Shown in pieces: positions 54,467 to 64,000 of a stretch of 64,000 bases of DNA. The DNA comes from Bacteroidales bacterium. Lineage in GTDB: Bacteria > Bacteroidota > Bacteroidia > Bacteroidales > FEN-979. The stretch's first letter is position 1; every line of letters starts with the position of its first letter. The stretch spans positions 990 through 64,989 of the forward strand of contig JADGPR010000009.1 in NCBI GenBank assembly GCA_017882335.1. The letters run 5' to 3'. The position numbers and the translations under genes are program-made. A model generated the notes under the pieces. That model did not search any database. It had not been told where the DNA came from and saw only the letters and a program-made list of their open reading frames with translations.

Positions 54467-55546
54467 GTGGCACAGCTCCTGCTTGATGACGGAACACGGA
54501 TAACGGGAAAACCTTTTGGGGCTTTGTGTTCCGTTTCAGGAGAAGTGGTTTTCAACACCGCCATGACCGGCTACCCGGAAAGCCTTACAGATCCTTCATA
54601 CAAAGGTCAAATCCTGGTATTGACCTATCCGCTGATCGGGAATTACGGCGTTCCGGGGAAAGCGATCCAGGAAAATCTTTCGAAATATTTCGAATCGGAC
54701 CGTATCCATATTTCCGGGCTGGTCATCTCGAGTTATTCCGCGGAATACAGTCACTGGAATGCACTGGAAAACCTTTCCGACTGGCTCCTGGCGCATAACG
54801 TTCCGGGGATCAGCGGGATAGATACCCGTGCGCTCGTCAAGCTACTTCGCGAACGGGGTACTATGCTCGGGAAGCTTTTCCAAAATGATGAAGACGAGGT
54901 CGAATTTTACGATCCCAACAAGGATAACCTTGTCGAACAGGTCAGCATCAGGGAGAAGATCACCTACCCGGGCAATGAAAACCGGATCATCCTTGTCGAT
55001 TGCGGTGTCAAAAATAACATCATCCGTTGCCTGATGGATACCGGCGCCACCGTGATCCGGGTTCCATGGGACTATGATTTTACCCAGGAGGATTATGACG
55101 GGCTCGTGGTTTCAAACGGTCCCGGCGATCCGCAGATGTGCAGGGAAACGATCGGAAATCTTGAAAAAGCCATTGCATCAGGTAGACCCATCTTCGGTAT
55201 TTGCCTTGGAAACCAACTCCTGGCCATTGCTGCCGGGGCCACTACCTATAAACTTAAATACGGCCACCGGGGATACAACCAACCGGTATTATTGTGCGGG
55301 ACAAAAAAGACCTATATTACCTCCCAGAATCATGGGTTCGCAGTGGATGACAGCCATCTTGGCAAGGATTGGAAACCCTTTTTTATCAACCTGAACGACG
55401 GGACCAACGAAGGGATCCGTCATAAGAAGAAACCTTTTTTCTCAACGCAATTCCACCCTGAGGCTTCGGGCGGACCTACCGATACACGGTTTCTCTTTGA
55501 CGATTTTATGGACCTGGTCCAAGCTTTCAAAATGAAAAGAAAATGA
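54467..55546 (+). CDS. carA: Carbamoyl-phosphate synthase small (glutaminase) subunit
   Basis: 359 aa with a GTG start, FNTAMTGYPESLTDPSY, GICLGNQLL (catalytic Cys) and QFHPEA. Overlaps carB in ATGA. Confidence 0.95.
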   Translation: MAQLLLDDGTRITGKPFGALCSVSGEVVFNTAMTGYPESLTDPSYKGQILVLTYPLIGNYGVPGKAIQENLSKYFESDRIHISGLVISSYSAEYSHWNALENLSDWLLAHNVPGISGIDTRALVKLLRERGTMLGKLFQNDEDEVEFYDPNKDNLVEQVSIREKITYPGNENRIILVDCGVKNNIIRCLMDTGATVIRVPWDYDFTQEDYDGLVVSNGPGDPQMCRETIGNLEKAIASGRPIFGICLGNQLLAIAAGATTYKLKYGHRGYNQPVLLCGTKKTYITSQNHGFAVDDSHLGKDWKPFFINLNDGTNEGIRHKKKPFFSTQFHPEASGGPTDTRFLFDDFMDLVQAFKMKRK

Positions 55547-58500
55547 GAAAGGGGATCCATAAAGTGCTTATCCTGGGATCCGGGGCTCTCAAGATTGGTG
55601 AAGCCGGAGAATTCGACTATTCCGGTTCGCAGGCATTGAAAGCGTTGAAAGAGGAAGGGATCGAAACGGTATTGATCAACCCGAACATTGCCACCATCCA
55701 GACTTCCGATAAGATCGCCGATAAGGTCTATTTCCTGCCTGTTACACCCTATTTTGTTGAAGCGGTGATCCGCAAGGAAAATCCTGACGGGATCCTGCTT
55801 GCTTTTGGGGGCCAGACGGCACTCAACTGCGGAGTTTTGCTATACCGTGCAGGAGTATTCACTAAATACAAGGTACGTGTATTGGGAACTCCGGTTGAGA
55901 CCATCATCAGCACTGAAGACAGGGAGCTGTTTTGCAGGAAACTGGATGAGATCCAGGTGCATACCCCGCGTAGTGTTGCCGTTACCGATGCGGAAAGCGC
56001 CAGGAAAGCTGCCGAACAGGTTGGCTACCCATTGATCATCCGGGCTGCCTTTGCACTGGGAGGACAGGGAAGCGGGTTCTGTTCCAATGAGAACGAGCTT
56101 GACTTGCTCGTTGCCAAAGCATTTTCTTATTCCAACCAGATCCTTATCGAGGAATCGCTGAAAGGCTGGAAGGAGATCGAATATGAAGTAGTCCGTGACA
56201 GTCACGACAATTGTATCACGGTATGCAACATGGAGAATTTCGACCCCCTGGGCATCCATACCGGCGAAAGTATTGTAGTTGCCCCTTCGCAGACCCTTTC
56301 CAACCTTGAATATTACAAGCTCCGGGAGTTGTCGATTCGCGTGATCCGCCACCTGGGTGTCGTCGGTGAATGCAATATCCAGTATGCACTCAACCCGGAA
56401 TCGGAAGATTACCGGGTGATCGAGGTGAATGCCCGGCTGTCAAGGTCTTCCGCGCTTGCCTCAAAGGCGACCGGCTACCCGCTGGCATTTGTCGCTGCCA
56501 AGCTGGCCCTGGGATATGGACTGCACGAGCTGAAGAATTCTGTGACAAAGACCACAACGGCCTGCTTTGAACCGGCGCTGGATTACATCGTATGCAAGAT
56601 CCCTCGATGGGACCTTGGTAAGTTCGTGGGCGTGTCGAAGCAGATCGGATCAAGCATGAAAAGCGTAGGCGAGATCATGGCCATCGGGCGGACATTTGAA
56701 GAAGCCATTCAGAAAGGGTTACGGATGATAGGGCAAGGGATGCACGGTTTTATCGGCAACAAGGAGCTGCGAGCCAATGACCTGGAAAATGAGCTTTCCA
56801 ATCCCACCGACATCAGGATCTTCCATATTGCCCAGGCATTTGCAGAAGGCTATTCGGTTGAAAAGCTCTGGGAACTGACCCGGATCGATAAATGGTTTTT
56901 GTACCGGTTGAAAAACATATTTGATACAGGGCAGATCCTTGAAAAATATAATGACATCCGGGAAGTTCCTGACGACCTGATCCTGGATGCCAAGCGATTC
57001 GGATTTTCCGATTTCCAGCTAGCCCGGCTGGTATTCAAGACCGGAAAAAGGAACCCGGAACCCGATATGCTGACAATCCGTGAATACCGGAAAGAAAAGA
57101 ATATCATCCCCTATGTAAAGCAGATCGATACCCTTGCGGCAGAATATCCCGCTCAGACAAACTACCTTTACCTGACTTATAGCGGCAGCGAACATGATGT
57201 GGATTTCCTGCATGACCGGGGATCGGTGATCGTCCTGGGCAGCGGCGCATATCGGATCGGGAGTTCGGTTGAGTTCGACTGGTGCAGTGTCAACACGTTG
57301 AACGCCATAAAAGATGCAGGATACAGGTCGATCATGATAAATTACAATCCCGAAACGGTCAGTACGGATTATGATATCTGTGACCGGCTTTATTTTGATG
57401 AGCTTTCATTTGAACGTGTGATGGACATCGTTGAGCTGGAAGATCCCAAAGGGATCATCCTTTCGATGGGAGGCCAGATCCCCAACAACCTTGCCATGCG
57501 GCTTCACAAGATGGATGTGCCGGTCCTGGGAACATCACCTGTTTCGGTTGACAACGCCGAAGACCGGCATAAATTTTCTTCCATGCTGGACAGGCTGGAA
57601 ATTGATCAGCCCCGGTGGAAAGAACTTTCAACGCTGGAAGACATCTATGCTTTCACAGAACTAGTCGGCTTCCCTGTGTTGATTCGTCCTTCCTATGTGC
57701 TCTCCGGAGCTGCCATGAACGTGGTTTCCAACAAAAGCGAATTGGAGTATTTCCTGACACTGGCAACCAATGTCTCCAAAGAACACCCGGTGGTCGTATC
57801 AGAATTCATCGAGGAAGCCAAGGAGATCGAGATCGATGCTGTGGCTAAGGAAGGAGAGATCGTTGCTTATGCCATTTCGGAGCACATTGAATTTGCCGGA
57901 GTTCATTCCGGCGATGCGACGATCATTTTTCCTCCGCAGAAGATCTATGTGGAAACAATCCGACGGATCAAGCGCATCAGCCGTGACATAGCCCGGTCGT
58001 TACAGATCTCCGGACCGTTCAACATCCAGTTTCTTGCCAAGGACAATGATATCAAAGTTATTGAATGCAACCTTAGGGCTTCGAGGAGTTTCCCGTTTGT
58101 TTCCAAAGTACTGAAAATAAATTTCATTGATATCGCAACCCGGGTCATGCTTGGGATACCATTTGATAAGCCGGATAAATCCTTCTTCGATATTGATTAC
58201 ATTGGGGTGAAGGCTCCCCAGTTTTCTTTCTCGCGGCTTCAAAAAGCGGATCCGATGCTGGGGGTTGACATGGCTTCAACCGGCGAGGTGGGCTGTATCG
58301 GCGATACCGTTTACGAAGCCGTGCTGAAGTCCATGCTTTCCGTCGGATACCGCATTCCGGAGAAAAACATTCTGATCTCATCGGGACCGGTAAAATCCAA
58401 GACGATCCTGCTGGAAGGTTGCCGGATGCTGGCCGAAAAGAGGTTCCATATTTTTGCCACAAGAGGAACTGCAGAGTTCCTTCAGGATAATGGCATTGAC

Positions 58501-58761
58501 TCGACCATCCTTCATTGGCCCGATGAGGATGCCTCTCCCAATGTGATGGAATACCTGAAAGATCATAAAATCGATCTTGTGATCAACATCCCGAAGAACC
58601 TTTCAAAGGATGAGCTCTATAATGATTACACCATCCGCCGTGCAGCAATCGATTTCAACGTACCGCTGATCACCAATGCCAACCTGGCAAATGTGTTCGT
58701 AATGGCATTCTGCAAACTGAAACCGGAAGATCTGGAGATCAAATGCTGGCAGGAATACTAG
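55543..58761 (+). CDS. carB: Carbamoyl-phosphate synthase large subunit
   Basis: 1072 aa with duplicated ATP-grasp halves (VLILGSGALKIGEAGEFDYSG; VIVLGSGAYRIGSSVEFDW) and an MGS-like C-terminus. Confidence 0.97.
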   Translation: MRKGIHKVLILGSGALKIGEAGEFDYSGSQALKALKEEGIETVLINPNIATIQTSDKIADKVYFLPVTPYFVEAVIRKENPDGILLAFGGQTALNCGVLLYRAGVFTKYKVRVLGTPVETIISTEDRELFCRKLDEIQVHTPRSVAVTDAESARKAAEQVGYPLIIRAAFALGGQGSGFCSNENELDLLVAKAFSYSNQILIEESLKGWKEIEYEVVRDSHDNCITVCNMENFDPLGIHTGESIVVAPSQTLSNLEYYKLRELSIRVIRHLGVVGECNIQYALNPESEDYRVIEVNARLSRSSALASKATGYPLAFVAAKLALGYGLHELKNSVTKTTTACFEPALDYIVCKIPRWDLGKFVGVSKQIGSSMKSVGEIMAIGRTFEEAIQKGLRMIGQGMHGFIGNKELRANDLENELSNPTDIRIFHIAQAFAEGYSVEKLWELTRIDKWFLYRLKNIFDTGQILEKYNDIREVPDDLILDAKRFGFSDFQLARLVFKTGKRNPEPDMLTIREYRKEKNIIPYVKQIDTLAAEYPAQTNYLYLTYSGSEHDVDFLHDRGSVIVLGSGAYRIGSSVEFDWCSVNTLNAIKDAGYRSIMINYNPETVSTDYDICDRLYFDELSFERVMDIVELEDPKGIILSMGGQIPNNLAMRLHKMDVPVLGTSPVSVDNAEDRHKFSSMLDRLEIDQPRWKELSTLEDIYAFTELVGFPVLIRPSYVLSGAAMNVVSNKSELEYFLTLATNVSKEHPVVVSEFIEEAKEIEIDAVAKEGEIVAYAISEHIEFAGVHSGDATIIFPPQKIYVETIRRIKRISRDIARSLQISGPFNIQFLAKDNDIKVIECNLRASRSFPFVSKVLKINFIDIATRVMLGIPFDKPDKSFFDIDYIGVKAPQFSFSRLQKADPMLGVDMASTGEVGCIGDTVYEAVLKSMLSVGYRIPEKNILISSGPVKSKTILLEGCRMLAEKRFHIFATRGTAEFLQDNGIDSTILHWPDEDASPNVMEYLKDHKIDLVINIPKNLSKDELYNDYTIRRAAIDFNVPLITNANLANVFVMAFCKLKPEDLEIKCWQEY

Positions 58762-58825
58762 ACGAAGGGAATTCAGAATTCAGAATGCAGTAAACTATAG
58801 ACCCTTGCTGGTTAGTGTGCCTTAT

Positions 58826-58846
58826 CACTGCTCGTCTCTGACGAGC
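58826..58846. repeat. Hairpin module D (cactgctcgtctctgacgagc), 65 nt downstream of the carB stop; candidate terminator
   Basis: 7-bp stem gctcgtc/gacgagc. A near-identical copy with shared flanks (gtgcct..tcactgctcgtct.tgacgagc.tta) lies at 15286-15306 next to another gene 3' end. Confidence 0.55.
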
Positions 58847-59053
58847 TTTATTACACTAAATTAATTGCTTCTTTCAACATTTGCCCTCAGGCCGGGCGGG
58901 CCCTCGTCACCGCAACGCGTCTGCGCCCAGCGCTGTTTCTTCAACCTTTTTCCAAACTTTCCACTATTGGACCCGCGCTGGTCAAGGCCGCTTATGCGGC
59001 GACTGATATTGTAGGGTATTCATACATTCCACTGCTGCAGGAACCTTCGCCGT

Positions 59054-59082
59054 GTGGGTGCCCCGCTGAAAACCTGAAGGCA
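59054..59082 (+). repeat. 29-nt direct repeat, copy 1 (gtgggtgccccgctgaaaacctgaaggca)
   Basis: Identical to 60253-60281. A degenerate inverted copy (ggttttcagcgacccac) lies at about 60093-60109. Confidence 0.8.
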
Positions 59083-59104
59083 GAAAATGCACTTCACCCC
59101 CCGA

Positions 59105-59128
59105 CCCCCTCTCCTGAAGGAGAGGGGG
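59105..59128. repeat. Perfect 10-bp-stem hairpin ccccctctcc-tgaa-ggagaggggg (module E)
   Basis: Read directly from the sequence. Related to the module at 24568-24620. Confidence 0.7.
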
Positions 59129-59230
59129 AGCGCCTCGATCAGTCCGCAGTTTTAACGCAAATTTCATTCTTCAACATCTGTCACCCTCCTGCGATAAATG
59201 GTATAGGATTTCCAGCTTATGCATTTAGTT

Positions 59231-59770
59231 TTACAAATCATCCTTTCTGAATCCAATTCTTGTACACGGGAGATTCTTTCTTTGATGCAATTCATCAATC
59301 CGTTCAAGTAATGAATTAAATGCAAGTGTGAATTTTTTGTCTAATGCCGCCAGCTGTGCCTTCAACTCCTCGGTTTCATGTAAAAGTGCCCTATATCTTG
59401 CAAAAGCTCTCATAATCTCAATATTTATACTGATTGCTTTCTCAGAATGAAGGACCGAAGAGAGCATTGCCACTCCTTGTTCAGTAAAAACAAGTGGGTT
59501 AATACTACTATGCTTAAGAGTATTCAACCGGTCGCAATTTGCGACCAGTTCCTCTTTTTCAGCCTTGTTAAGTTCAAACATGAAATCTTACGGGAATCTT
59601 GAAATATTGCGTTTTACTTGCTCCTTAAGACGCTTAGTATTGACTTTATAAAGTAAAGCAAGGTCTGCATCCACCATGACTTTTTTCCCCCTTAAAGTAA
59701 ATATCATTTTTTCGTAACCCGATTTGATTAGTTCTTGTGACATTTCCAATGTATTTTTTTGATAAAACAT
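59231..59770 (-). pseudogene. ORF6N-domain (KilA-N-related DNA-binding) gene interrupted by one in-frame TAA
   Basis: Track ORFs 59588-59770 (...KVMVDADLALLYKVNTKRLKEQVKRNISRFP*) and 59231-59581 (MFELNKAEKEE...FTEQGVAMLSSVLHSEKAISINIEIMRAF) share one frame. They are separated only by TAA-GAT-TTC, reading RFP-stop-DFMFEL where family members as I recall read RFPEDFMFEL. Confidence 0.75.
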
Positions 59771-60117
59771 AGTGACACATTCACAATATGCTACTATGCA
59801 TTGATGTTGGACAGTATTGAAGGTTGCATAATGTTTTTATTGTGTTCATTGCATTCTGTTTATTGCTTTATCAGTTTGGAAGGAAAAAGCTAATACCACT
59901 GTTGAAAACTTTCTTACGCGGATTTCATTGAGAGACGCGATGCGCCGAAGAAACCCTTTTCGCCTCACATCTCACCATTCACTTTTTCTTTGCGTCCAGG
60001 CCGGTGGGGTTTATTTTACTTTTCTTTTGCTTGCTCTCCCGCTGACGCTGGAAAAACGCCAGAAAAGTAACAAAAGAAAAATGCAGCCTCGGGTTTTCAG
60101 CGACCCACCAAAGACAA

Positions 60118-60247
60118 GTGTAAAGTGTAAAGTGCGAAGTGCGAAGTGCGAAGTGCAATTAATGTTCCTTTTAACTGCATTTAATGCCAATGTCGATGAC
60201 AATCAGAACGAGTAATATCACACTTCGGACTTCACATCTCGGACTTG
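60118..60247. repeat. Tandem word repeats (gtgtaaa)2(gtgcgaa)3 with an inverted partner (cacttcggactt)2
   Basis: gtgtaaagtgtaaagtgcgaagtgcgaagtgcgaagtgcaa at 60118-60158; cacttcggacttcacatctcggacttg at 60221-60247, which contains the reverse complement of cgaagtg. Confidence 0.7.
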
Positions 60248-60252
60248 ATTTA

Positions 60253-60281
60253 GTGGGTGCCCCGCTGAAAACCTGAAGGCA
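60253..60281 (+). repeat. 29-nt direct repeat, copy 2
   Basis: gtgggtgccccgctgaaaacctgaaggca, identical to 59054-59082. Confidence 0.8.
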
Positions 60282-60474
60282 AAAATCCTTATAAATCTTC
60301 GAACAAAAACTGAATTATGATTTACCCTGCGCTTCAGCGCAGGGTTGTAAAAGGTGCATAACCAAGGGCTTTAGCCCGAAAGATTGGGGGGGTAGAAGGG
60401 GAATGCTTTGTCGCTTCGCTCCTCACAATGACAAAGGGAAAAAAAAGACCGGCTTCTGAAGATGCAATCCTAAT

Positions 60475-62109
60475 TTACTTTCCCTTGACTGATATTCCGG
60501 ACTCTTCTTTTTTCTGACTGGTCAGGTTATAGGTGAAACCAACGAAAATTCCGGGTCTGAATGCCTTTTCAACAATGGATGTTTGGTCAATATCTGATGT
60601 TTTGACCGGGGTATCGAGGCTGTATTTCCCTTTCAGGTAATCAACCGGCGCTGCTGCCAGACCACCGGATAGTATAAACCGCTCTTCACGTCCTAAAACC
60701 ATACTTAAACCAACAAAAATGGTAAGATTTGAAATTGCAGATACATTGGCGCCGATTCCCCAGGTAAAGCCTCCTGTCACCGAGTGGTTGGTTCGGAAGA
60801 GGATATGCATTAACGCGCCTATTGTCGGCTGAAAAAGGTTATGGTTCTTATCCTTCTTTATGATTGAAGTGTCTTTTTGTGTTGAAGGATAGACAGAATA
60901 TTTCCGGTCATATAAAAAAGTGGTCACCATTAAACCGGTACTGAAAGCGATTTGAACCCCACCTTTCACGTCGAAGGTCAGGGTTTTCTTGCAGGCAACG
61001 GCATTCCCGCCGGCATTTTTGCCCTTTTTGAGCTCATTGTATTCAATGTTGATGAACATCTGATCCTTTGTTGGTTTGATCGGATCCGGGAAGGAGATAT
61101 CCGTAAAAACCCCGTTCTTCAATTGTATGATCATATTTTGTATGGACTCGGTCAGATTGGAATAACCATCATTTTTTACCAGTTCATCAACAGAACCTTT
61201 CATTGATTCAACTGAGTTTACAAGGGCATTTACGCTCATCCTCATTTCGAGATCTGCATTTAGTACGGAGATAACATTTGTATCCTTGCTGAAGGCGGCA
61301 TAGTCATCCTTAAATGTTTTGTAGTTCTTATTGAATTCAGGAAGAACCCGGTCTTTTTGCTCCAGGAATTTTTTGTAATTCTGTTCATGTGAGGCAAGCT
61401 CTTCCGTGATCATTTCGGGGCTCAGTGAATAGTCATTGAGTATGCTTACCAGTTGGTTATTGAGTCTCTTGATATTTTCGATCTCCTGGAATGAGCCGGT
61501 TACCGACTTTACATTCTCTGTAAGTTTTTCGATGAGGGTTTTACAGTCTGCAATTTTCTTTTGCATTTTCTGTTCTGCCTCGTATTGCTTTATCAGTTTA
61601 GCCAACCGGTCCTGTTCTTCCTTGGTCAGATTACTCTTTATATTGTTCGTTATTTCTTTTTCATTTGATTTATCCGGTTTGATAACATTCATAATATTCA
61701 TCACGCCATTACCTAAAGCTTTTTTGCCCAGGACGCCAATTTCCTTCAATGTCGAACTACTCCCATCGGTGATCTTTTGTTCCTTGTTTTCAATCTGCGC
61801 AGTGAGATTTGTTCCGATTGTGTCTTTAATAGGTGCAGTTTCCGGGATTTTAAAACTTGCTGGTACAATGGGTTCAAAGAAATTCCTCTGGTCGGGGGTG
61901 ATTGAGAAATCACTGTATAATCTTGTATCGATATTCGTGATCTTTAGCCCATATGTTGTATTATATTCCAGAACAAATTTCTCAGGCGGAACCTTTTCCG
62001 GATCAACTGTAATAGTTTTTGTTTTAAAGTCATAGGTAATGATCTTCTGGCTGAAGGAAACAGATGCTATGAAAAATGAGATCGCGGATAACAGTACAAT
62101 TTTTTTCAT
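60475..62109 (-). CDS. Hypothetical secreted protein: N-terminal beta region, long helical/coiled-coil middle, C-terminal beta-barrel-like region
   Basis: 544-aa ORF with a signal peptide (LLSAISFFIASVSFSQ). Middle part is rich in heptad-like K/E/Q/L segments. The C-terminal ~190 aa alternate hydrophobic residues and end in an aromatic-rich strand (GIFVGFTYNL). Confidence 0.6.
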   Translation of the reverse strand: MKKIVLLSAISFFIASVSFSQKIITYDFKTKTITVDPEKVPPEKFVLEYNTTYGLKITNIDTRLYSDFSITPDQRNFFEPIVPASFKIPETAPIKDTIGTNLTAQIENKEQKITDGSSSTLKEIGVLGKKALGNGVMNIMNVIKPDKSNEKEITNNIKSNLTKEEQDRLAKLIKQYEAEQKMQKKIADCKTLIEKLTENVKSVTGSFQEIENIKRLNNQLVSILNDYSLSPEMITEELASHEQNYKKFLEQKDRVLPEFNKNYKTFKDDYAAFSKDTNVISVLNADLEMRMSVNALVNSVESMKGSVDELVKNDGYSNLTESIQNMIIQLKNGVFTDISFPDPIKPTKDQMFINIEYNELKKGKNAGGNAVACKKTLTFDVKGGVQIAFSTGLMVTTFLYDRKYSVYPSTQKDTSIIKKDKNHNLFQPTIGALMHILFRTNHSVTGGFTWGIGANVSAISNLTIFVGLSMVLGREERFILSGGLAAAPVDYLKGKYSLDTPVKTSDIDQTSIVEKAFRPGIFVGFTYNLTSQKKEESGISVKGK

Positions 62110-62148
62110 AATATAAAATTTAGGGGTTTGTTCTAATACATCAATTTA

Positions 62149-62156
62149 CAAATATA
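62149..62156 (-). promoter_or_regulatory. -7 box TAtaTTTG (minus strand) upstream of the 544-aa gene
   Basis: Plus-strand caaatata, 40 nt upstream of ATG 62109. Confidence 0.35.
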
Positions 62157-62370
62157 ATATATAATAATGAAAAGTCAAGTATTTATGATACAATTAAAAG
62201 TTTATTTGATAAGATTTAGCTCTGATTTTGATTGACTGGGGTTCGGGGAGCTTACAACCTGCTGCTCATTCTTTATTTTAACTGCGGAGACGCAGAGACG
62301 CAGAGAAGATATTAGTTTTTATTGAGAGGCAGGCCAGTGCGCAAAAAATTACCCCGCGCTTTAGCGCGAA

Positions 62371-62406
62371 AGATTGCTTCGTCGCCCCGCTCCCCGCAAT
62401 GACATC
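62371..62406. repeat. Dispersed repeat module C (agattgcttcgtcgc...c.cgcaatgaca)
   Basis: agattgcttcgtcgccccgctccccgcaatgacatc. Other copies at 19567-19597, 19618-19652 and 60401-60436. It is preceded by ccgcgctttagcgcgaaag, which resembles gggctttagcccgaaag at 60366-60382. Confidence 0.7.
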
Positions 62407-62613
62407 TGATGCCAGTGAAATATGACAGGATAGTTGGTCTGTATGAAAAATTCCAAATTATATACGGATTTTGGAAAAAAAATCACACCTTTGGGGTGAA
62501 TTATCTTCTTCCTCGTTTTTCAGGATCTCCTTTAAAGAAAATACTTGCATGTTGAATAAATTACACATCAGCACCCTGATGCCCCCGGTATTCACATCTA
62601 AACGTCAGTAAAA

Positions 62614-64000
62614 TGAAGGACTCCATTAAAGAAATGACATTGAATGACCTGAGTACGGATTCATCTTTTCTTGATGGCCTTAAAAATGGAAATTTTTGCC
62701 TAGTGCTTGGAGCCGGTTTCAGCTATGGCCTGGAAAATAAAACCAACTCGGCTTATAATGATGAAAAATTTATTCCGGTTGTAAAAAAATTTGTTGCCCT
62801 GACCAACAGGAAATTTGGAACGAAATTAGACGAGAAGGATTATCATGGTGCCGCGGATGCATGGAATAGAAAAATCCGCCATGATGAAATCAGCTTCACC
62901 GATTTTAAAAATTTATTCCTGCTTGATGAAAAGAAATTTTTATCAAAGAAGTCACTTTATGCTAATATTTTAGTTCCTAAGTGGGCAAGAATTTACACAT
63001 TTAATTTTGATAACGTATTGGATGTATTAATTGAAGATGAAAAAGAAAAATACGGAGTTCTTTTTAGTAATACCGGGGCTTTTGGACCTGATCATAAAAT
63101 TGGAATAGGGTATCTGCATAACTCAATGATCCATGCAAACAGCATAGATAACCTGGTATTTACCTTTAGCCAGTATACAGATCAAATTTTTCTTCCGACG
63201 AATCACCTTTATTATGCTTTATTAAATGATATTGATAATCATCGCAGGGACCTCTTGATACTCGGTTGCGGATTTAATGAGCAAAGTGTCTACACATTTT
63301 TATTTAACCAGATTAAAAGACCGGACCTGAAAATAATCTTTATCAATTATCAGGACAGGCCAAAATTTGAGCTCACTGTTGAGGATAAAATAAAGGACAT
63401 AACGTGGATAAATTGCAAAACTGAAGATTTTTTAAAATATATTCAAAAAATCAGCCATGATCTGTCCCCGCATAAGCACCCCGGGCATACTTATAACCAT
63501 TGTTTTGAAATTGCCGACCCGGGTGATCTTGATAATGTGTCAAAAAACTTTGCAATAGTTGAGAATCCCTTGATCGGTCGCTTTGGAGATAAGGAACATA
63601 ACCTGGGCTGGAACGACATCCAATCCTATATCAGTTATAAAGAAGAGAGTCTTATTGATTTTGATTCACATTATAAGATATTTCCGATAACCGGCGCACC
63701 GGGTACCGGGAAATCAACATTACTGTTTCAGAATCTTTCCAGCTACCTTCTTTCAAAAAGGAATAATAAAAGGAAAATTATCTTTGTTCATCCCAATGAG
63801 CTGATAAATCTTGAAAGTATTCTTAACAATGAGGACCATTGCCTGATTGCCGTTGATTCCCTTGACAGGAGCAATAATCATGATAACGCCACGGTTTTGT
63901 TTGAACCGGTTTACCGGGCTATCGCTTCCAATACGGACGTGAAGTTCGTTTTCAGTATTTATGATAACAGCTGGAATGCAATCGCCGTTAACTATTCCGG
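62614..64000 (+). CDS. SIR2-like (SIR2_2-type) domain fused to a P-loop NTPase; 5' 462 codons, ORF still open at the window end
   Basis: Manual translation from ATG 62614 (in-frame stop at 62557-62559 upstream, no stop through 64000). MKDSIKEMTLNDL...FCLVLGAGFSYG (62710-62724), IYTFNFDNVLD (63001-63015), IGYLHNS (about 63112-63120), LILGCGFNE, then Walker A ITGAPGTGKST (63694-63720) and Walker-B-like HCLIAVDSLD. Absent from the ORF track because it lacks a stop in the window. Confidence 0.75.

Follow-up and report, generated by a model that had tools for sequence, protein, structure and literature searches.

We analysed a 64,000-nt stretch of a Bacteroidales contig (JADGPR010000009.1; this whole stretch is called the window below), at the end of which lies the 5' part of a large gene that we call the SIR2-STAND gene. 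Its reading frame opens with an ATG at 62613 and was translated through 462 stop-free codons up to base 64000, the last of the window. An initial annotation of this DNA had proposed a 462-codon frame beginning at 62614; translation bore out the length to the window edge and moved the start by one base, as the frame 62614-64000 is full of stops and 62613-64000 is open. An in-frame stop lies 12 codons 5' of the ATG with no start codon in between, and the relatives described below start at the same position. At the local base composition (GC 0.366), 462 stop-free codons would arise by chance with a probability of ~1.6e-15. The frame was indeed missing from the track of open reading frames (ORFs), as lists of this kind leave aside any frame still open where the sequence stops. 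The six motifs quoted in the annotation (LVLGAGFS, FNFDN, YLHNS, LGCGFNE, GAPGTGKST and CLIAVD) are all present in the order given. The visible part (Table 1) represents the 5' 37% of the expected gene.

Table 1. Features of the SIR2-STAND gene and of the DNA preceding it (window coordinates; aa, amino acids)
Feature	Position	Strand	Remarks
SIR2-STAND gene, first 462 codons	62613..64000	+	No stop before window edge; expected full length ~1240 aa
SIR2-like (SIR2_2) domain, aa 1-285, predicted NADase effector	62613..63467	+	PF13289, AlphaFold2, Foldseek
LVLGAGFS glycine loop, aa 30-37, Rossmann-fold dinucleotide-binding loop	62700..62723	+	Nearly invariant in 15 relatives
FNFDN, aa 130-134 (N131, predicted catalytic Asn; D133)	63000..63014	+	T129, N131 and D133 invariant in 15 relatives
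YLHNS, aa 167-171 (H169, predicted catalytic His)	63111..63125	+	L168 invariant, H169 nearly invariant
LGCGFNE second glycine motif, aa 217-223	63261..63281	+	Six closest relatives
Pre-P-loop conserved element, aa 303-350 (DLDxVSKNFxIVENPLxGRFG...W)	63519..63662	+	Shared with P0015-17
Start of STAND-type P-loop nucleotide-binding domain, aa 351-462	63663..64000	+	Cut by window edge
Walker A GAPGTGKST, aa 361-369	63693..63719	+	G361, G364, G366, K367, S368 and T369 family-invariant
Walker B CLIAVD, aa 410-415, then invariant R419	63840..63857	+	L411, D415 and R419 family-invariant
Strain-specific DNA, carB stop to SIR2-STAND gene	58762..62612		Holds split ORF6N and orphan 544-aa genes; relatives have an RND efflux operon there
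ORF6N-domain gene, split	59231-59770	-	60-aa and 116-aa ORFs, profile positions 2-40 and 44-86
Orphan 544-aa gene, signal-peptide-like start	60475-62109	-	No Pfam match; singleton
Upstream intergenic DNA, 503 nt, presumed promoter region	62110..62612		No ORF of at least 50 aa

The protein has very few close relatives. With only the NTPase part as query, a word-based protein search gave no match, and an exhaustive HMMER search of 1.84 billion representatives returned only three proteins below an E-value of 1e-10, which we label P0015, P0016 and P0017. P0015 (1248 aa; 42% identity, E 2e-104) and P0016 (1238 aa; 40% identity) are collinear with the window protein over all 462 residues and run on for ~780 residues past aligned residue 462. 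P0017 (961 aa) begins at the pre-P-loop motif and has no SIR2 domain; it is 37-40% identical to the window protein in the shared part. This protein (locus L008, 8001-10886) consists of NTPase and sensor with no recognisable effector, and the 470-nt gap upstream of its gene is too short to encode one.

The N-terminal 285 residues of the window protein are a defence-type SIR2 domain with predicted NADase activity. Pfam search matched SIR2_2 (PF13289) over aa 127-235 at 28.5 bits against a cut-off of 24.5, and relative P0016 scored 42.5 bits against the same profile. An AlphaFold2 model built on 15 relatives reached a predicted local distance difference test score (pLDDT) of ~90 over aa 1-285, and was unreliable past aa 287. 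When aa 1-285 were compared with the PDB by Foldseek, the first match was the EfAvs5 'SIR2-STAND' structure 9jap (E 1.4e-9), followed by the AVAST5 filament 9nc9, ThsA, DSR2 and KomC. All of the 50 best PDB fold matches were Avs5, ThsA, DSR2 or KomC, every one an antiphage NADase. The above-threshold profile match, the confident model and the uniformly defensive fold matches thus uphold the suggestion in the initial annotation that the SIR2 domain is of the defence type.

Profile alignment placed the conserved residues of the domain onto those of characterised enzymes. KomC of the Kongming system was the closest solved structure by sequence (E 1.5e-5 in a profile search). The LVLGAGFS loop, in which G33-A34-G35 is nearly invariant across the 15 relatives, aligned with the GAGxS loop in each of the two KomC-type chains (9v0g and 8zsf). 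W124, T129, N131, D133 and L168 are invariant in the same set. N131 paired with N107 in the TTNYD motif of KomC, and H169 with KomC H146, the residue altered in PDB entry 9xvc, 'KomC(H146N), a SIR2-domain NADase'; the Asn of FNFDN and the His of YLH, singled out in the annotation, therefore both align with KomC residues. From these alignments, N131 and H169 are predicted to be the catalytic pair. In EfAvs5, the substitution N141A, equivalent to the N131 position, abolishes defence (PMC11897194). In the second glycine motif, the six closest relatives show no variation at G218, F221 or E223. A housekeeping sirtuin was also considered and ruled out: the classical sirtuin profile (PF02146) gave no Pfam match at E up to 1, and the Cys4 zinc-ribbon insert is missing, the domain's only cysteines being the scattered residues 29, 219 and 268.

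The second part of the protein was described in the initial annotation as a ~50-aa linker followed by a P-loop NTPase. The distance from the end of the SIR2 fold (~aa 285) to Walker A (aa 361) is in fact ~75 aa, and much of it is conserved: D305, L306, D307, E317, N318, G322, R323, F324 and W333 are invariant and common to P0015-17. Because this element is also present in P0017, which lacks a SIR2 domain, aa 303-350 are the N-terminal part of the NTPase module rather than a free linker. The following region (aa 351-462) is 55% identical to P0015. The P-loop NTPase reading itself held, and the NTPase is probably of the STAND type: the best Pfam match was nSTAND_NTPase5 (PF25199; 28.4 bits, profile positions 38-140 of 145), compared with 16.4 bits for nSTAND3, and a model of P0017 shows STAND domains. 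The full-length relatives scored 17.5-32.5 bits against nSTAND5, for which the cut-off is 34, and a more distant relative, P0031, scored 36.2 bits, above the cut-off.

Helicase readings of the same region were rejected. PADLOC gave only weak matches confined to the P-loop (Nhi, AbiO and mad8), of which Nhi and AbiO scored 22-23 bits over aa 347-431, a stretch spanning Walker A to Walker B, and were absent in the full-length relatives. The helicase matches from PADLOC (Nhi, AbiO) and Pfam (Schlafen helicase, ResIII and AAA_19) were all P-loop-confined and vanished in the full-length relatives. An NCBIfam search gave no meaningful match.

The relatives also indicate what lies beyond the window. 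In the AlphaFold2 model of P0017 (pLDDT 79), residues 70-193 form a P-loop alpha/beta domain, 201-293 a helical domain and 301-353 a winged helix that includes a beta hairpin; all-alpha paired-helix repeats follow (361-958, ~600 aa). Its best PDB match was the STAND-TPR protein 6mfv, followed by SAMD9, TPR solenoids and Avs5. Searching with only the NTPase part also led to more distant relatives, which are nSTAND5-TPR proteins 1100-1540 aa long; one exceeds the Pfam cut-off, and one bears a different N-terminal effector, PRTase-CE. Since P0015 and P0016 are collinear and full-length, and the P0017 model supplies the remaining domains, the complete window protein is most likely ~1240 aa, with SIR2 and STAND domains followed by a TPR-like helical sensor. 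The initial annotation had placed both the sensor part and any partner genes beyond the window. The relatives point to ~780 more residues of the same protein there and show no obligatory partner gene.

The SIR2 subfamily to which the domain belongs is rare, with 14 proteins recovered by word-based searches of 5.8 billion clusters. Six sister SIR2 domains (P0001-P0005 and P0008) are 33-55% identical to that of the window protein and are attached to other modules. The fused sister proteins are ~700 aa long; P0001 carries an NB-ARC/AAA_16-like module and P0002-5 another nSTAND5 module. P0008 is a separate 298-aa SIR2 gene lying directly upstream of an 889-aa nSTAND5 gene, at a locus with a methyltransferase and an HNH gene as neighbours. 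The existence of both fused and split forms argues that SIR2 and NTPase function together. No BLAST similarity past Walker A was detected between the sisters' NTPase parts and that of the window protein, and hhalign related the window-clade NTPase profile to the nSTAND5 modules of P0002-5 with 50% probability over 93 columns. Because of this hhalign result and the sub-cut-off nSTAND5 scores, the NTPase clade of the window protein and P0015-17 would appear, by sequence, to be a divergent branch of nSTAND5.

We compared the locus with those of related strains to assess whether the gene belongs to the conserved genome. carA and carB lie upstream of it, and the source labels of proteins with at least 90% identity to the window's carB are Bacteroidales or Bacteroidota metagenome-assembled genomes. 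In the seven loci with such a carB (L012-L018), carB is followed by a resistance-nodulation-division (RND) efflux operon, either directly or after two unrelated hypothetical genes, and the SIR2-STAND gene, the 544-aa gene and the ORF6N remnant are missing from all seven. DNA similarity to these relatives ends exactly at the carB stop codon, 58761. The GC content is 0.446 over bases 1-58761, drops to 0.408 across the strain-specific stretch and reaches 0.366 within the ORF, in agreement with the AT-richer setting noted in the initial annotation; in seven of seven loci (the window and six relatives' loci), the SIR2-STAND gene has a lower GC content than its flanks. The annotation had also weighed a variable island against a housekeeping locus conserved in synteny, and the seven gene-free carB loci favour the former. 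The gene is best explained as an accessory gene that a Bacteroidales-type genome gained by horizontal transfer, at a variable site adjoining carAB.

The gap between carB and the RND operon varies in content among close strains, being empty, or holding hypothetical genes for 233 and 506 aa, or, in the window, holding the ORF6N, 544-aa and SIR2-STAND set. In some of L012-L018, a DDE transposase interrupts the RND efflux operon itself. The carB-RND interval looks like an integration hot spot. The 506-aa gene of the related strains was considered as a homologue of the 544-aa neighbour and rejected, as tblastn gave no match.

Two further genes in the strain-specific stretch agree with their earlier description. 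The ORF6N gene is decayed, its two ORFs covering separate parts of the Pfam profile, and is probably a decaying gene of mobile-element origin. The 544-aa neighbour is an orphan, being a singleton cluster among ~15 billion proteins; its N-terminus resembles a signal peptide, its middle is rich in Lys and Glu, and hydrophobic residues alternate in its C-terminal third. The repeat-dense character of the region was likewise confirmed, the short dispersed repeats being confined to the last 5 kb of the window. A 33-nt direct repeat (GTGGGTGCCCCGCTGAAAACCTGAAGGCA...) at 59054-59086 and 60253-60285 brackets the split ORF6N gene and occurs nowhere else in the 64 kb, apart from an inverted partial copy at 60089-60109. 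A dispersed element of ~75 nt (…GCTTTAGCNCGAAAGAT…TGCTTNGTCGC..CGCTCCNCNCAATGACA) has copies at 60358-60434 and 62348-62404 that bracket the 544-aa gene, the second lying ~210 nt upstream of the SIR2-STAND start; this element may be a miniature repeat, or a recombination or insertion scar. Microsatellites are also found in the strain-specific intergenic DNA: AAGTGCG ~4 times at 60116-60158, GAGACGCA 2.5 times at 62287-62306 and GAATTCA 3 times at 58769-58790. Rfam and tRNA scans of the window were empty.

Some of the related genes have neighbours typical of mobile or defence DNA. P0001 lies next to an IS3 transposase; P0017 next to a DpnII-type restriction enzyme and an ArdC-N/MPTase gene; and P0016 next to a helix-turn-helix gene and a TIR-domain gene. 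The product of a gene ~1.7 kb downstream of P0016 (L009, 13419-14888) combines a CAP12-PCTIR TIR-like domain with a mannose-phosphate-isomerase-like domain in one fusion. Because no conserved partner gene was seen across the relatives' loci, the gene looks like a single-gene system.

Searches for the remainder of the gene delimited what the available records contain. The NCBI contig with the window's carB is 65,164 nt long, so that the whole 3.7-kb gene would probably not fit in the source record. No relative turned up in reference genomes scanned with the protein or with the family alignment, a metagenome scan gave only a 53-residue P-loop match, and a SIR2-profile scan of viral contigs found no family member. 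Exact matches of the 544-aa neighbour and of carB occurred in one 8,031-nt contig only, which is identical to window positions 54544-62574, was assembled from an independent sequencing run (SRR10489815) and stops 39 nt before the SIR2-STAND start codon. We read both ends of this contig as assembly breaks and not as island borders, because its other end falls inside carA.

We consider it likely that the window holds the 5' 37% of a single-gene, Avs-like antiphage sensor/effector, composed of a SIR2 NADase (aa 1-285), an nSTAND5-type STAND NTPase (from ~aa 303) and, beyond the window, ~600-780 aa of TPR-like repeats. The SIR2-plus-NTPase effector architecture proposed in the initial annotation is supported by Pfam, by the fold matches and by the relatives. 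Architecture, catalytic and nucleotide-binding motifs, fold relationships and accessory status are described above as observed; the mechanism that follows is the most likely one by analogy with Avs5 and other Avs proteins. EfAvs5 defence depends on the Asn of SIR2, on both Walker motifs and on the sensor, and the protein becomes a NADase on filament assembly, which is induced by the phage protein T7 gp1.7 (PMC11897194). PaAvs5 hydrolyses NAD+ after sensing a jumbo-phage protein (10.1101/2025.07.08.663546), and in other Avs families TPR-like sensors bind folds found in conserved phage proteins and the proteins then oligomerise (PMC12803255). By the same logic, the helical C-terminus of the SIR2-STAND protein would bind a phage-made protein; this binding would release the ATP-bound NTPase to oligomerise; oligomerisation would cluster the SIR2 domains into an active form that hydrolyses NAD+; and the loss of NAD+ would halt growth of the infected cell, and the phage with it, by abortive infection.

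Several points weigh against this interpretation. The antiphage function of the family is a prediction from architecture and analogy, and oligomerisation may give a filament, a tetramer or another form. The nSTAND5 score of 28.4 bits, obtained for a protein truncated within this domain, falls short of the Pfam cut-off of 34; the window-protein model is unreliable in its NTPase part (pLDDT <50); and the STAND fold and the sensor were derived from relatives that are 37-55% identical. The PADLOC Avs5 model matched neither the window protein nor P0015-17, and PADLOC models gave weak P-loop matches only. In the visible window, no recognised defence gene adjoins the SIR2-STAND gene, and P0015 stands alone among housekeeping genes. 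Finally, only 37% of the gene is visible, it is probably cut in the source record too, and it may be disrupted further downstream.

The incomplete view of the gene bears directly on one alternative, in which the frame is a decaying remnant: a pseudogene that has lost its function, sits in foreign DNA undergoing degeneration and is truncated or disrupted past the window edge. The split ORF6N gene next to it, the many short repeats and microsatellites, and the fact that the gene cannot be traced past 64000 would all fit such a history, as would relatives with parts missing (P0017 lacks SIR2, and P0004 looks truncated). We nevertheless regard a remnant as unlikely: 462 codons are intact in AT-rich DNA at the chance probability given above, all family-invariant residues are kept, including N131, H169 and the Walker motifs, and the adjoining DNA (54544-62574) is identical in the assembly from run SRR10489815. 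That the SIR2-like domain is something other than a NADase, namely a deacylase, an ADP-ribosyltransferase or a degenerate NAD-binding regulatory domain on the NTPase, is more improbable still. NADase activity of the window protein is a prediction, the catalytic His is followed by NS (HNS) in the sub-clade in place of the usual HG, and EfAvs5 itself deviates at the His position; against this, conservation extends to the glycine loop, Asn, Asp and His, NADases are nearest in both sequence and fold, and neither a PF02146 match at E up to 1 nor zinc-ribbon cysteines were found.

The same architecture could also serve outside phage defence, as a STAND-controlled, NAD-consuming switch directed at plasmids or mobile elements, or used in kin discrimination or stress dormancy. 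STAND proteins with swapped effectors have also been described as general conflict or apoptosis-like systems (PMC8195603), the P0015 locus lacks defence neighbours, no member was found on viral contigs in the SIR2-profile scan, and there is no known trigger. However, every solved structure that resembles the SIR2 domain is an antiphage NADase, and the patchy distribution, low GC content and restriction or mobile-element neighbours fit defence genes; we therefore consider a non-phage role improbable, to about the same degree as a remnant. A more specific version of the antiphage reading goes further than we would commit to, and we put it forward tentatively as somewhat less probable than its opposite: that the gene belongs to an uncharacterised, very rare and mostly Bacteroidota-associated Avs family with its own ~780-aa sensor for a trigger that no known Avs recognises, and that its SIR2 domain is a portable cassette found on at least three unrelated-looking NTPase modules and as a separate gene. 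If true, this would amount to a natural experiment in which one NADase effector has been coupled to different oligomerisation engines.

Bacterial immunity is well known to include single-protein STAND sensors with SIR2 effectors, and the characterised ones (Avs5) come from Pseudomonadota, with one NTPase type and a short sensor. The window gene follows this effector-switch-sensor logic with other components, and does so in a Bacteroidales-type genome. Catalogues of defence systems would gain a family from it, and it is a candidate for identifying what senses the phages of Bacteroidota. It also illustrates module shuffling, as the same SIR2 is joined to three NTPase modules that differ from one another and in one case is encoded on its own. 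No new mechanism is opened, the mechanism proposed is an expected one, and the window copy is incomplete.

Among known systems, Avs5 (EfAvs5, 9jap; PaAvs5, 9nc9) is the nearest in layout: it is also one polypeptide with an N-terminal SIR2 domain, a central STAND NTPase and a C-terminal sensor, it gave the best structural match of the window model, and it was among the matches of the P0017 NTPase-sensor model. The suggestion that the window gene could be a new combination accordingly fails, SIR2 plus STAND being already the Avs5 architecture (PMC11897194). In sequence, the two are well separated. A family profile searched against the PDB retrieved no Avs5 chain at E up to 10, and the only weak match to the Avs5 profile came from a distant sister, P0005 (E 1e-3). 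The Avs5 NTPase is described as nSTAND3 (10.1101/2025.07.08.663546), whereas that of the window protein is nearer to nSTAND5. Avs5 has an 'unusual short' sensor and ~770-850 aa in total, compared with ~780 aa past residue 462 and ~1240 aa in total for the window family. EfAvs5 has an Asn where other SIR2s have the catalytic His, and the window protein keeps the His; Avs5 occurs mainly in Pseudomonadota, and the window gene in a Bacteroidales-type genome. Because of the missing profile match, the other NTPase clade, the long sensor, the canonical His and the other host lineage, the window gene is not a member of the Avs5 family despite its Avs5-like layout.

In general layout, the window protein falls within the effector-STAND-sensor class of antiviral proteins. 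What is new, as judged against the models of PADLOC-DB 2.0.0, which do not match it, is a rare, divergent family; it may be among the 589 STAND clades distinguished in a 2026 survey, of which 198 are associated with defence (PMC12803255). For the NTPase part, the best Pfam match leads to the nSTAND_NTPase5 (PF25199) TPR proteins, to which the window clade scores 17-32 bits against the cut-off of 34. For the SIR2 part, KomC (Kongming; 8zsf, 9v0g), ThsA (Thoeris) and DSR2 have the fold and catalytic motifs in common with the window protein, including the canonical Asn and His. The control of the effector differs: ThsA uses a SLOG domain and a signalling nucleotide, KomC a partner and dITP, and DSR2 a fused non-NTPase sensor. 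Unlike what is predicted for the SIR2 domain encoded in the window, none of the three is under the control of a STAND NTPase.

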